Shown here piece after piece: positions 4,118 through 39,401 of a DNA stretch of 41,784 bases. Where the stretch lies: the NCBI GenBank assembly GCA_013331555.1, contig DUGB01000134.1, positions 244 to 42,027 on the forward strand, in the 5' to 3' direction. The position numbers and the translations under genes were made by a program. Below the pieces are notes generated by a model that did not search any database, was not told where the DNA came from, and was given only the letters and a program-made list of their open reading frames with translations. The number at the start of each line of letters is the position of its first letter. Positions within the stretch are counted from its first letter, which is position 1. This DNA comes from Candidatus Woesearchaeota archaeon (GTDB taxonomy: Archaea > Nanobdellota > Nanobdellia > Woesearchaeales > GW2011-AR9).

Positions 4118-4244
4118 AGATTATTGACACTGTTACGTTATATTAAATTTTTGTTTTCAGGAATAAGAACAAGTGCCAAAAAGTTTATAAACGAAGTTGC
4201 TTTGGTTCTCTTCTAATTTATTAAAAAAGTGATGGTGATGCAGT

Positions 4245-32268: not shown

Positions 32269-32466
32269 ATGAAAAAAATAATCTTGGTTTGTTTAGTGTT
32301 GCTTTTTGTGGTCAGCTGTTCTTCACCAGAATTGACAGATCAATCAGCCCCTGCCGAAAGCTTAGGTATAGGAGATACAACTGTGGAAGAATTAGAGGAT
32401 TTACAGATTGACTTAGAAGAGGATGTTTCTTTTGAGGAGGTTAATGATCTTACAATATTGGATTAA
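32269..32466 (+). CDS. small acidic lipoprotein
   Basis: MKKIILVCLVLLFVVSC gives a signal peptide plus lipobox (VVSC). The mature part is highly acidic. Confidence 0.45.
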   Translation: MKKIILVCLVLLFVVSCSSPELTDQSAPAESLGIGDTTVEELEDLQIDLEEDVSFEEVNDLTILD

Positions 32467-33491
32467 TCTTCTTTTTTCTTTTCTTCAAGGATAGAGTCGG
32501 CCATAAAATTATATTTTAGTTCTTCAAAAGCGAAAAGAATCTCATAGGTCTTGATAATGTCTTCAAATTGTTCTTTAATGCCATTGATAACGTGGTGGAA
32601 TTCTGGTAGATTTCTAGTAATGACATAGATGATATAATCATAATATCCTACCGTTTTTGTTGCCCAGAGGATTGAGCCTTGATTTTTAAGATAATGTTCA
32701 AAGCGAGTGATGCCTTCGCTGGTGTAATTCAGTTTAATTAGTAAGGAATTGATCATCAGGCCGAGAGAGGCATAATTGACAACCGGACGATAGCTGAGGA
32801 TATATTTGTGCTGCTCTAATGATTTTATGTGGTAGGGAACTGTATCTTTTGAAACGCCTAATTCATGGGCGAGGGAAAGGTTTGTTTTGCTCGCATCACG
32901 TGAGAGGGCGTGAAGAATTTGAATATCATGGGGCATTATTTTTTTATCTGAAGTTGTTTTATTTGATACGGAAGTTGCTGATGAAGCCGTTTTCTTCTCT
33001 TTAAGTTGAGGGAAGTATGCAGAGGGAAGAACTTCCGAACAAATTGTCTGAAGTAGGATGAGAATTTGATCGTCCCTCATCCGCATCCCCTCAATAAGTT
33101 GATGATAATACTGAAGAAATTCTTGTTCATTTTTGGCCATGATTGAGATTTCAAGATTATATTTTCCGCTGTACACAATAAGAGCGTTGACAAAAATGGC
33201 ATGTTGCGCACGGGCAATGATTTCTCGCTCCTGTGAGGGAATATGAACTTCCATGAAAATATGATATGATTTATAGCCTAATTTTTGAATATTAATGACC
33301 GTACGAGAACCACGGAGGAGATTGTGTTCATGCATCATTTTTAAGCGATATTCAACTGACTGACGAGAGAGAAGGCAGGTTTTAGCGATTGACGAAAGAG
33401 GTTGACGATAATTATGAATAATTTCTCGTAAAATACGCCAATCTTTGGCATCAAGAGAAACGAGTTCAAGTTGAGAAGTCAATACACGCAT
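32463..33491 (-). CDS. tandem Lrp/AsnC-type transcriptional regulator (two wHTH + ligand-domain modules)
   Basis: Two HTH modules: LDAKDWRILREIIHNYRQPLSSIAKTCLLSRQSVEYRLKMM and DIQILHALSRDASKTNLSLAHELGVSKDTVPYHIKSLE. Each is followed by a ~70-aa alpha/beta-like segment. Confidence 0.55.
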   Translation of the reverse strand: MRVLTSQLELVSLDAKDWRILREIIHNYRQPLSSIAKTCLLSRQSVEYRLKMMHEHNLLRGSRTVINIQKLGYKSYHIFMEVHIPSQEREIIARAQHAIFVNALIVYSGKYNLEISIMAKNEQEFLQYYHQLIEGMRMRDDQILILLQTICSEVLPSAYFPQLKEKKTASSATSVSNKTTSDKKIMPHDIQILHALSRDASKTNLSLAHELGVSKDTVPYHIKSLEQHKYILSYRPVVNYASLGLMINSLLIKLNYTSEGITRFEHYLKNQGSILWATKTVGYYDYIIYVITRNLPEFHHVINGIKEQFEDIIKTYEILFAFEELKYNFMADSILEEKKKED

Positions 33492-33606
33492 TGTAGTAAA
33501 TTAGATTACTTAATATATAAATGTTTAGCTATTTTTCTATTTTCTTGCTGTTTTGTTTTATATAATTCTATTACTAAGAGTTATTATTAGATATGTACCT
33601 CCTCTT

Positions 33607-33622
33607 CTTGGCGGAAGGGAGA
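33607..33622 (+). repeat. 16-nt 5'-UTR motif CTTGGCGGAAGGGAGA, copy 1 (7 nt before the ATG at 33630)
   Basis: Exact 16/16 identity with 34664..34679. Its first 11 nt are the reverse complement of 35357..35367. Confidence 0.8.
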
Positions 33623-33629
33623 GACAAAC

Positions 33630-34565
33630 ATGACAAAGACAAACATTGAATTGGCGTTCTACGGAACGCGGGGAAGCTGCCCTAAAGGACGCCCTGAATT
33701 TATGGAATTTGGCGGTGATACGAGTTCTTACACCTTGCGCTTAGGTGAAGCACTACATCTTCTGGATGCAGGAACAGGAGTCCAAGAAGCATTGAATGAG
33801 CAACTGACGCCAGGAACAGAACGAGTGGAAATTGATCTTACTCATCCACACTTAGATCACATTAACATGGGATGTGCTGGTCAAATTTACTTTAACAACG
33901 TTCCAGGAGCGATTCAAATCGTGGGTTGCGAAGGGACAGAACGAGCATTGAATAAAGTCTTTGATGGTGAATTCCTCTGGCCTGTTGATTTTGAACACAT
34001 GGGTGGTATAAACAAAGTTATTACTGAATGCCGTGGCAGGGAAGAATTCCAACATCCTGGCTATAATGTAAGAACATTGCGAAACTGGCATCCACGCGGA
34101 CCTACTCGTGATGGAGATGGGGGTTCAATTGGCTTCCGTTATGATGTCCAGACAACTGAGGGAGGTATTTACTCTGTAGCATATGTCTCCGATATGACGT
34201 TCCGCTACGATAACAAAGGACAACCTCTTCTAGGTTCAGAACAAAGAATCAATGAATTTGTGCGGTTTGTACAAGGAGCAGATGTTCTTATTGCGGACAC
34301 ACAATATAGTGAAGATGACTTTGCAAAAATGCCATTCTTGAAAGGCTTTGGCCATCCCGCGTTGGAAGAAGTCATCGACTATGCAACACGAGCAGGAGTG
34401 AAATTGCTTTTGGGAACGCATCATGACACGAAACAAACTGATGAATTGTTGAGGAAGAAAGAACAGTTTGGACAAGAGTACGGACGTAGTGTTGGTTTTC
34501 AAGGTGATTTTGGAATGGCACGACAAGAAGAACGAATAGTTGCTCCCTATCGAATAGCTGCCTAA
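33630..34565 (+). CDS. metallo-beta-lactamase-fold hydrolase (COG1235/PhnP-like)
   Basis: YGTRGSCP...FGGDTSSYTL...LLDAGTG and HxHxDH motif LTHPHLDH. C-terminal LLLGTHHD. Confidence 0.65.
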   Translation: MTKTNIELAFYGTRGSCPKGRPEFMEFGGDTSSYTLRLGEALHLLDAGTGVQEALNEQLTPGTERVEIDLTHPHLDHINMGCAGQIYFNNVPGAIQIVGCEGTERALNKVFDGEFLWPVDFEHMGGINKVITECRGREEFQHPGYNVRTLRNWHPRGPTRDGDGGSIGFRYDVQTTEGGIYSVAYVSDMTFRYDNKGQPLLGSEQRINEFVRFVQGADVLIADTQYSEDDFAKMPFLKGFGHPALEEVIDYATRAGVKLLLGTHHDTKQTDELLRKKEQFGQEYGRSVGFQGDFGMARQEERIVAPYRIAA

Positions 34566-34572
34566 ATTAATG

Positions 34573-34584
34573 CTTCCGCCCAAG
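34573..34584 (-). repeat. reverse-complement copy of the motif (CTTCCGCCCAAG), 7 nt after the stop at 34565
   Basis: Complement of CTTGG(G)CGGAAG; it has one extra C relative to 35357..35367. Confidence 0.7.
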
Positions 34585-34595
34585 AATATGTATGC

Positions 34596-34639
34596 CCACT
34601 CTCCTTGGGGGAGGGTGGAGCATTTTTCTTTTTCTTTGT
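34596..34639 (+). terminator. hairpin + T-runs downstream of the MBL-fold gene
   Basis: CCACTCTCC-TTGGG-GGAGGGTGG forms 9 bp including one G-U pair, followed by AGCATTTTTCTTTTTCTTT. Confidence 0.55.
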
Positions 34640-34663
34640 GCGGAATAAAATTTTCTCTTTTTC

Positions 34664-34679
34664 CTTGGCGGAAGGGAGA
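34664..34679 (+). repeat. 16-nt 5'-UTR motif CTTGGCGGAAGGGAGA, copy 2 (5 nt before the ATG at 34685)
   Basis: Exact identity with 33607..33622. Confidence 0.8.
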
Positions 34680-34684
34680 AAACA

Positions 34685-35350
34685 ATGGTTTGGAAAACAG
34701 ATTCGTTTTATACCGGAAACTATGAGCCACGGCGATTACCCGTTGCGCAACCGTATCAGCAAGGTTCAGTCATCGCTCATGTTGAACGGGTGGAGAAGCA
34801 ACGAGTTTCAAGACAGCGAGAGAATGAAAAAGTTGAACGATTGTTTAGAATTGATGACAATATTTTAGGATACAATCTTGACGGGCAAAGAGTATTTGTC
34901 CGCTGTCAGCAAAATGAACGAGCATTTGATGTGTATATTGCGCTGCCTTTTGTCAAAGGAATGACCGAACGTGAGACAGGTAGAACCATGATTATTCTCG
35001 GAAGTGAAGCTCATCATGGAGAGGCCATGGTCAAGCAATTTCCCGGAGCAGTCTGGAATGATGTTGAGGATCAGAGGAGTTATGGCAATACCATTCGCTG
35101 GATTAATGTCGGTGATACAACGCAAGGATTTATTGGGATGGATTACAATCCAAATGCTGCGGCTGACAAAGGAGTGGCGACTTCTCTTGACGATGTATAT
35201 TTTGTTGCCCGAACATTGGTGGGGATTGGGTATGATACCCGAAAGCGATTGTTCTTGTTGAAACCACCGTATATTGTTGAACGAGAAGAAGGCAAAGTAC
35301 TACGCCAACGAGGTTTGAACACGTTGGACGATTATTGCCGCCATCATTAA
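34685..35350 (+). CDS. hypothetical protein
   Basis: 221-aa ORF with the conserved 5' motif, the 3' complementary motif and a strong terminator. No motif recognised. Confidence 0.5.
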   Translation: MVWKTDSFYTGNYEPRRLPVAQPYQQGSVIAHVERVEKQRVSRQRENEKVERLFRIDDNILGYNLDGQRVFVRCQQNERAFDVYIALPFVKGMTERETGRTMIILGSEAHHGEAMVKQFPGAVWNDVEDQRSYGNTIRWINVGDTTQGFIGMDYNPNAAADKGVATSLDDVYFVARTLVGIGYDTRKRLFLLKPPYIVEREEGKVLRQRGLNTLDDYCRHH

Positions 35351-35356
35351 TTCCTA

Positions 35357-35367
35357 CTTCCGCCAAG
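35357..35367 (-). repeat. reverse-complement copy of the motif (CTTCCGCCAAG), 6 nt after the stop at 35350
   Basis: Exact reverse complement of the first 11 nt of the 5' motif. Confidence 0.75.
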
Positions 35368-35372
35368 GAAGA

Positions 35373-35419
35373 TGCCTGCTCTTCTTTTCAACTGAAAGGA
35401 GGGGCAGGCACATTTTTTT
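35373..35419 (+). terminator. long hairpin + T7 run
   Basis: TGCCTGCTCTTCTTT-tcaactg-AAAGGAGGGGCAGGCA forms about 16 bp including G-U pairs, followed by CATTTTTTT. Sits between convergent genes. Confidence 0.6.
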
Positions 35420-35446
35420 AAAGTACTTCGAAGAAGGTAATGTGTC

Positions 35447-38802: not shown

Positions 38803-39147
38803 TTAAAATAACGAAAACAATTTTTCTTTCATTTGGGCAAGAAAAGTGACCTGGACTTGACCGATTTTCTTGAGAAGAAGTTTTTTATTGATTTTAAAAA
38901 TAGTGTCAACTTTGACAACACAAAGATCGTGAAGTTCGCCAGAAAGAAGAGTTTCTGGAGAGATCAAGAGAGTATATTTTTCTTTGGTGAGATTTGAGGT
39001 GATAGCACAGACGATGACGTCATCTGAGGAAGAGTTAAAATTATTGTGCGAGACAACAAGAACAGGTCTTACTTTCTGACCGCTTAAGTCTGAGAAAGGA
39101 AAAGGAACAAGCCAAATCTCACTTTGGTTTACAGATATTTTTTCCAT
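38803..39147 (-). CDS. PemK/MazF-family type II toxin (endoribonuclease)
   Basis: SEIWLVPFPFSDLSGQKVRPVLVVSHNNFN...VIVCAITSN is the typical MazF/PemK signature. 19-nt overlap with the upstream antitoxin ORF. Confidence 0.75.
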   Translation of the reverse strand: MEKISVNQSEIWLVPFPFSDLSGQKVRPVLVVSHNNFNSSSDDVIVCAITSNLTKEKYTLLISPETLLSGELHDLCVVKVDTIFKINKKLLLKKIGQVQVTFLAQMKEKLFSLF

Positions 39148-39401
39148 ACCTTATCATCCTGAGAATTAGACCACACATTCAAGAGGTTTTTTTCGGCAAG
39201 AACTTGCCAGCCTTCTTGTTCTGAATCTTTCTTCTTATGATCTTTGAGTCCTTCTAAGAAGTCATTCTCTCGTTCTACAATAAGCTTATTTTCTTTCTCA
39301 ATGACAACTAAAGTTGAACCTTCAACGATCTGCAAGTGTTTACGGATATTTTCAGGAATGACAATCTGACCTCGCGATGATACTTTAACAGTTCCAATCA
39401 T
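39129..39401 (-). CDS. AbrB/MazE/SpoVT-family antitoxin
   Basis: VKVSSRGQIVIPENIRKHLQIVEGSTLVVIEKENKLIVER is a swapped-hairpin AbrB-like domain. Confidence 0.7.
   Translation of the reverse strand: MIGTVKVSSRGQIVIPENIRKHLQIVEGSTLVVIEKENKLIVERENDFLEGLKDHKKKDSEQEGWQVLAEKNLLNVWSNSQDDKVWKKYL

Follow-up and report, generated by a model that had tools for sequence, protein, structure and literature searches.

Complementary boxes at the two ends of a conserved DPANN archaeal operon as candidate partners in mRNA-end pairing

Functional pairing between the two ends of an mRNA is documented for just a handful of bacterial genes; for archaea, only a genetic requirement for both untranslated regions (UTRs) is on record. 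In the hok mRNA of plasmid R1, the fbi/tac fold-back pairs the 3' end with the 5' end and locks the translational state of the full-length message until 3' processing. Pairing between the 5' and 3' UTRs of icaR mRNA in Staphylococcus aureus was proposed to control translation and stability (PMC3868564), and end pairing around a strong Shine-Dalgarno (SD) sequence in hbs mRNA of Bacillus subtilis modulates nuclease access and couples stability to translation (PMC5737220). Regulated translation in Haloferax volcanii was reported to require the 5' and 3' UTRs together (PMC2636863), and haloarchaea largely do without SD sequences at their 5' UTRs (PMC3986360). The present analysis concerns a groundwater metagenome contig of about 42 kb from a DPANN archaeon (hereafter the window, meaning the whole 41.8-kb stretch of DNA analysed), in which two adjacent genes have the same short box in front of their start codons and its complement after their stop codons. 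The box pair is real, conserved and operon-specific. With a probability of roughly 0.6, judged from comparison of loci and predicted folds, the 5' and 3' boxes are the two halves of an RNA-RNA interaction between the ends of the operon mRNA, and such pairing would probably control translation or stability.

The two genes encode a metallo-beta-lactamase (MBL)-fold hydrolase (gene 1) and a protein of 221 aa (gene 2). The 16-mer CTTGGCGGAAGGGAGA is found exactly at 33607-33622 and 34664-34679, and the copies stop 7 nt and 5 nt short of the ATGs at 33630 and 34685. Two copies were reached in 0/100 shuffles, and a third copy was not found in the 41.8-kb window with up to two mismatches allowed. The reverse complement of the first 11 nt of the 16-mer, CTTCCGCCAAG, lies at 35357-35367, 6 nt past the TAA of gene 2. 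The elements are as follows (window coordinates, strand):

33605-33622, plus strand: 5' box copy 1, of which 33605-33617 complements the 3' box; the SD-like GGGAG lies at 33617-33621
33630-34565, plus strand: gene 1, MBL-fold metallo-hydrolase (Lactamase_B_2 in Pfam/NCBIfam), distantly RNase Z/phosphodiesterase-like
34573-34584, plus strand: degenerate 3' box CTTCCGCCCAAG, 7 nt past the TAA of gene 1, with an extra C and the GGAAG arm lost
34596-34627, plus strand: terminator-type hairpin after gene 1 (hairpin 34596-34618, T-run 34623-34627)
34661-34679, plus strand: 5' box copy 2, of which 34661-34674 complements 35357-35370 without a mismatch; GGGAG lies at 34674-34678
34685-35350, plus strand: gene 2, 221-aa protein of a DPANN-restricted family with no assigned function (60 homologues, all DPANN or unnamed)
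35357-35371, plus strand: 3' box CTTCCGCCAAGGAAG, foldable as a 5-bp mini-hairpin with the loop GCCAA
35373-35419, plus strand: terminator-type hairpin after gene 2 (hairpin 35373-35410, 17 bp, z = -6.45; T7 run 35413-35419)

The positions of the 16-mer, its distances to the ATGs and the two 3' copies are those given by the original prediction, which also named correctly the lack of further copies, the one-base variant after gene 1 and the hairpin with T-run behind each 3' copy. Its 11-nt complement for gene 2 is present and was understated, the perfect complementarity being 14 nt long. The degenerate 3' box still pairs with 5' box copy 1 over 13 bp in the cofold. Both hairpins are G+C-rich with a T-run 3' of each, and that of gene 2 abuts the 3' box.

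The box pair was found again in no fewer than 12 related loci of other metagenomes and metagenome-assembled genomes, which puts the arrangement far beyond chance. The locus set comprised 20 gene 2-family loci from GTDB genomes, six true matches out of a pattern scan of metagenomes, and the loci retrieved through homologues of gene 1 or gene 2. That scan used an 18-mer 3' pattern, and the other 113 of the 119 loci listed were chance matches in unrelated coding sequence; a scan of viral contigs with a 14-mer gave at least 120 matches, presumed to be noise. The 5' box was found in one subclade (the window, L006, L008 [= L029], L009, L010, L044, L055, L065, L119, L143 [= L277], L264, L270, L278, and L279), with the consensus YY-TTGGCRG-R(N)-GGGAGA, pyrimidine run first. 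In every locus with a 5' box, its complement, the 3' box CTTCYGCCAAGRAAG, follows the last gene on the same strand, and this box is unchanged in 9 of 11 distinct relatives, the proteins of the box-bearing relatives being only 45-60% identical to those of the window. The boxes are confined to one conserved cluster, composed of a divergent regulator gene (REG), the MBL-fold hydrolase, the 221-aa protein and sometimes a 92-aa protein, and none were found elsewhere in the 41.8-kb window or in the 11-14-kb relatives. Contig L008 (MFTJ01000039.1) comes from a bin of 'Candidatus Nomurabacteria', a bacterium of the candidate phyla radiation, yet it carries the DPANN archaeal operon. It is identical to the metagenome loci L029 and L119 over the compared sites and flanks, and is probably mis-binned.

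Two layouts are found among the relatives. In type A (L143, L264, L270, L278, L279), REG is followed by a 5' box, gene 1a and a 3' box. In type B (L006, L008, L009, L010, L055, L065, L119), the order is REG, 5' box, gene 1b, 5' box, gene 2, gene 3, and 3' box. The relatives thus have a single 3' copy per operon, after the last gene, and these layouts place the bracket around the operon and not, as had been proposed, around each gene. The window has REG, 5' box, gene 1a, degenerate 3' box plus terminator, 5' box, gene 2, and 3' box; it looks like a composite in which a type A unit with a decayed 3' copy is followed by a gene 2 unit whose 3' copy is intact. The alternative that the intergenic copies form one large inverted repeat around the terminator applies to the window only, since this repeat is absent from the relatives. 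In the minimum free energy (MFE) fold of the intergenic region, the degenerate 3' box pairs through its CUUCCGC (34573-34579) with an extra GCGGAA at 34640-34645, just 5' of the TATA-like AATAAAAT; this stretch could be a promoter for gene 2 (B recognition element and TATA box) or part of a read-through structure. In L009, an extra inverted repeat, CTATAC-TGGCGGA ... TCCGCCA-CTATAG, is present at 4200-4243 in a long 3' UTR, just 5' of the 3' box, and contains the GGCGGA core once more.

The boxes keep their positions relative to translation and termination signals. The distance from the 5' box to the ATG is fixed (19-23 nt), and that to the TATA box ranges from 34 to 239 nt. Every 3' box lies on the strand that is transcribed, past the final stop codon and ahead of the terminator, and 12 of 13 copies stand 0-3 nt upstream of a terminator-type hairpin with T-run. 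The homologous terminator hairpin has a consensus stem of 14 bp, in which 8 pairs show compensatory changes in relatives, and it is on this ground taken to be a genuine RNA structure marking where the transcript ends.

Each 5' copy can form a contiguous helix of 10-16 bp with the 3' box of its own operon, anchored on TTGGC/GCCAA and with G.U pairs allowed. In the anchored alignment, 90.8% of the cells are standard pairs, vs 50-63% when the partner is slid by 1-3 columns. RNAcofold, suggested earlier as a check on the UTR pairs, gave an MFE dimer that uses the box helix and retains the terminator hairpin in 19 of 19 5'/3' combinations, with a ddG relative to the separately folded RNAs of -3.6 to -24.8 kcal/mol. 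The pairing of each message's own 5' and 3' UTRs, which had been put forward in the original prediction, is therefore kept as the best reading of a conserved, functionally linked pair of boxes; the proposal that the GGGAG purines take part is not upheld, because the conserved helix ends at GGAAG just 5' of GGGAG, and GGGAG has no conserved partner in the 3' flank.

The expected compensatory changes were found once. In L270 and L278, the 5' box CTTGGCAG faces the 3' box CTGCCAAG, in which G>A is matched by C>T (GC to AU), and L279, with a gene 1a 67% identical to that of the L270/L278 lineage, retains the ancestral G/C. Support from covariation is accordingly genuine, though thin. The helix is left bulged by two 1-nt insertions that arose independently, one being an extra C in the window copy at 34573 and the other an extra A in the 5' box of L279; an RNA duplex would be expected to tolerate such indels within the box better than a protein-DNA site does. 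Differences between the 5' and 3' copies of wobble-compatible and incompatible kinds both occur, and are too few to reveal an asymmetry.

Predicted folds suggest how the pairing may matter. In most leaders, an upstream pyrimidine tract is predicted to pair with GGAxGGGAGA, which gives a local hairpin hiding the SD-like purines. In the window, such hairpins are predicted at about 33594-33626 and at 34651-34682, where they mask the GGGAG of 5' box copies 1 and 2, respectively. In each of the two window genes, GGGAG is predicted to be unpaired with a probability of 0.01, vs 0.29-0.57 for five other SD-bearing genes of the window. Over the 19 combinations, the mean of this probability rises from 0.10 for the leader alone to 0.42 with the 3' element, with an increase in 17, because the long-range helix takes up the bases at the top of the hairpin that masks the SD.

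A simple model can be built on these predictions. In the leader alone, the pyrimidine tract of most copies would cover GGAAGGGAGA in the local hairpin. The 3' box, transcribed as the last element ahead of the terminator hairpin, would then pair over 10-16 bp with the box immediately 5' of the SD purines of the operon's genes and compete with the local hairpin, so that access to the ribosome-binding site (RBS) would be changed, and mostly opened. In its simplest form, the 3' box would be an anti-sequestor that opens the RBSs once the transcript is complete, or while its 3' end is intact. Pairing might also shield both transcript ends from exonucleases. It could take place within one mRNA, or in trans if a stable 3'-UTR fragment with the box and the terminator hairpin accumulates; a trans-acting small RNA derived from the 3' UTR might repress instead. 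Pairing in vivo, action in cis or in trans, and the direction of the effect are all inferred at this stage. An extension of the model, considered rather unlikely, would make the 3' box a translation licence, in which nascent or 3'-truncated transcripts stay locked in the local hairpin until the intact last element opens the RBSs. This would amount to a protein-free closed-loop check of mRNA integrity, possibly integrated with a leaderless upstream open reading frame (uORF).

The uORF in the window is the following:

33593-33649, plus strand: predicted uORF of 18 aa (MYLLFLAEGRDKHDKDKH), reading through 5' box copy 1

Most gene 1 copies of the 5' box are spanned by a uORF, which reads them in one constant frame, ..(S)FLAEGR.., and ribosomes on it would melt either structure. 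In type B it has 24-42 aa, begins 31 nt past the TATA box and ends on the ATGA that overlaps the start of gene 1b (frame ..SFLAEGRL); it is probably leaderless, given this distance of its start from the TATA box. The coordinates are L009 1768-1890, L055 5199-5324, L065 3200-3328, L119 3442-3570, L006 1869-1943, L010 1821-1940, and L264 2945-2995. The versions in L264 and in the window are shorter than those of type B, and no uORF runs across the box in L143, L270 or L278, nor before gene 2. Coding constraint as the origin of the box was rejected: lying 19-23 nt from the main ATG, the box does not stay in one frame with it, and no ORF runs across the copies before gene 2. In the gene 1b leader of L006 (1915-1943), the hairpin CTTCTT-ATGTAC-AAGAAG stands right before a GGGAGG SD without the TTGGCGG loop; this copy is unable to pair with the 3' box, and its uORF peptide (..NITSYVQEGRQL) is still similar.

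Several points weigh against pairing of the mRNA ends. The covariation in the boxes is a single evolutionary event, and column-shuffle controls were not significant, because the box core hardly varies; a joint change would be no less expected of two copies read by a single DNA-binding protein. In relatives of type B, two 5' boxes share one 3' box. The SD is predicted to be less accessible with the 3' element in 2 of the 19 cases, which makes the sign of the effect uncertain, and the local SD-hiding hairpin is absent from gene 1 of L010 and from L279, its alignment consensus being weak. The element is dispensable, since L007 and L273, two close relatives, have retained REG and the operon without any box. 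Transcript 5' ends, 3' ends and co-transcription are themselves presumed from sequence signals.

The DNA-binding protein most plausibly involved would be REG, and two further features of the window have to be considered with it:

32463-33491, minus strand: REG, tandem (two-helix-turn-helix) regulator of the Lrp/AsnC family, 342 aa (Pfam HTH_AsnC-type, HTH_24, AsnC_trans_reg; NCBIfam AsnC/LrpA)
33492-33570, no strand assigned: divergent promoter region with a putative REG TATA box, a T-rich spacer (..CGTTTTTTTACTAAT..) and the putative gene 1 promoter GTTTTGTTTTATATAA (33550-33565)

The boxes could be double-stranded DNA operators of this one protein, whose binding close to the RBSs and at the far end of the operon would lead to repression or looping. 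REG adjoins the operon in all loci and is transcribed divergently from gene 1. The box was found only beside it; it is absent from more distant loci and from the gene 1a homologues that do not adjoin REG (L267, L275). The 3' box is a 15-bp pseudo-palindrome of 5-5-5 structure (CTTCC-GCCAA-GGAAG), and 15 bp is a typical size of Lrp-type sites. The joint change of both copies in L270 and L278 also fits co-evolution with one protein. Pairing of RNA is nevertheless preferred, because conservation is strongest in the asymmetric centre of the box, TTGGCGG, and not in its palindromic arms, which differ freely among the 5' copies; because the 5' box tracks the SD and ATG and not the promoter; and because the 3' box tracks the terminator hairpin on the transcribed strand, where an operator, behind the final stop codon and ahead of the terminator, would have no obvious role. 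Indel variants in the core would shift the half-sites of an operator. REG-bearing loci without box are L007, L273, L274, L005, and L011; in L007 and L273, REG (54-59% identity) and the promoter block are kept. This divergent promoter block, with a conserved GTTTTGTTTTATATA, shows 76% mean column identity across 11 loci, L007 and L273 included, and the sequence suggests that it holds two TATA boxes. Since it is conserved in loci with and without boxes, the AT-rich block between the two TATA boxes is likely the operator region of REG, and its natural binding site. Operator function of the boxes is accordingly considered unlikely.

A second possibility, regarded as improbable, is that the two elements act separately and that their complementarity comes from common descent. 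The 5' hairpin would control translation by itself, for example as a thermosensor-like hairpin that masks the SD or as a protein-binding one coupled to the uORF, and the 3' mini-hairpin would be part of a compound terminator or stability element. The likeness of the 3' and 5' boxes would then reflect a duplicated hairpin module. The leader alone masks the SD in most loci, in gene 1 of L006 a CTTCTT-N6-AAGAAG hairpin is still present ahead of the SD although the TTGGCGG loop is missing, and the gene 1 terminator hairpin resembles the 5' hairpin (repeat family D3). The 3' box also folds on itself, and this is kept in the variant lineage as CUUCU-GCCA-AGAAG. Left unexplained are the invariant loop that is exactly complementary between the ends in every lineage, the constant opposite orientation, and the joint change in L270 and L278. 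The idea that the inverted repeats are DNA recombination sites at the borders of an invertible or mobile cassette has hardly any likelihood. Inverted repeats of 11-15 bp do flank a gene or gene set, and the window resembles two tandem bracketed cassettes, but no recombinase or transposase was detected among the neighbouring genes, all loci and independent assemblies agree in orientation and in the chromosomal context next to REG, and fixed distances to SD and terminator across 45-60% protein divergence fit expression signals.

A general RBS context, under which the motif would precede many unrelated genes, was also considered and rejected, because no other copies were found in the 41.8-kb window or in the 11-14-kb relatives and most other genes of the window lack an SD; the orthologous loci, moreover, carry the 3' copy. 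A recognizable SD was found within 18 nt of 7 of 43 ORF starts in the window, the starts being uncurated, and this low count suggests that the genome is mostly leaderless or SD-less, with the box-bearing genes among the few SD-led ones. Box-less loci have ordinary SDs of the GGAGGTGA type and often coupled genes, and in the distant ones among them no substitute complementary 5'/3' pair was found, just chance 9-mers in coding regions.

The order REG, MBL hydrolase, and gene 2 is kept in more than 20 DPANN loci, with REG identities of 28-60%, and the named homologues of genes 1 and 2 come from Woesearchaeota, Nanoarchaeota or unclassified archaea. Gene 2 has no sequence match in Pfam, NCBIfam or PDB, and its AlphaFold2 (AF2) model (predicted local distance difference test score, pLDDT, 76) gave no significant fold match. 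Across the family, 37 residues are invariant, among them the HH pair at 110-111. In relatives, a conserved orphan protein of about 92 aa is encoded 3' of gene 2 (L009 3768-4046). Elsewhere in the window, a MazF (PemK_toxin) gene lies at 38803-39401 on the minus strand, with an overlapping MazE antitoxin gene upstream.

A search of Rfam 15 gave no match at gathering thresholds, and a permissive search gave only noise (E >= 2). Among described systems, icaR is similar in having complementary UTR motifs, which may act in cis or between molecules; there, however, the SD itself (UCCCCUG) is paired, creating an RNase III substrate, whereas here the helix stops just short of the SD on its 5' side and would, by prediction, unmask it in most cases (PMC3868564). 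The icaR motif is surrounded by a long 3' UTR, whereas the 3' box of the archaeal operon abuts the terminator; the icaR host is bacterial, and the two systems share no sequence similarity. In the archaeal host, an RNase III would not be expected. The hok fold-back belongs to a bacterial toxin-antitoxin system and silences translation, whereas the effect predicted here is mainly the opposite. The hbs mRNA differs in its sequences, in its bacterial RNase Y/J1 context, in being a single gene, and in having no comparable comparative covariation (PMC5737220). For Haloferax, title and abstract report no defined complementary box pair (PMC2636863), and in contrast to the largely SD-less 5' UTRs of haloarchaea (PMC3986360), the box element sits on an SD.

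Archaeal rRNA processing stems and bulge-helix-bulge (BHB) substrates, to which the original prediction had compared the boxes, also have complementary sequences on both sides of a transcribed unit. This comparison was abandoned, since the Bulge(3)-helix(4 bp)-bulge(3) motif occurred in none of the 19 cofolds, the helix has only 10-16 bp, and the flanks beyond it are not conserved. On the sequence and folding evidence, the box pair is thus best read as an archaeal variant of 5'-3' UTR pairing, the closest analogues of which are bacterial. The element is small (two 15-nt boxes and a hairpin) and operon-specific, and for this reason can be tested directly with synthetic RNAs and reporters. A conserved DPANN cluster of a regulator, an MBL hydrolase and two orphan proteins is flagged by it as tightly regulated. 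If the reading is true, the operon would add to the bacterial cases a sequence-defined archaeal example with comparative backing, in DPANN archaea, whose gene regulation is essentially unknown.

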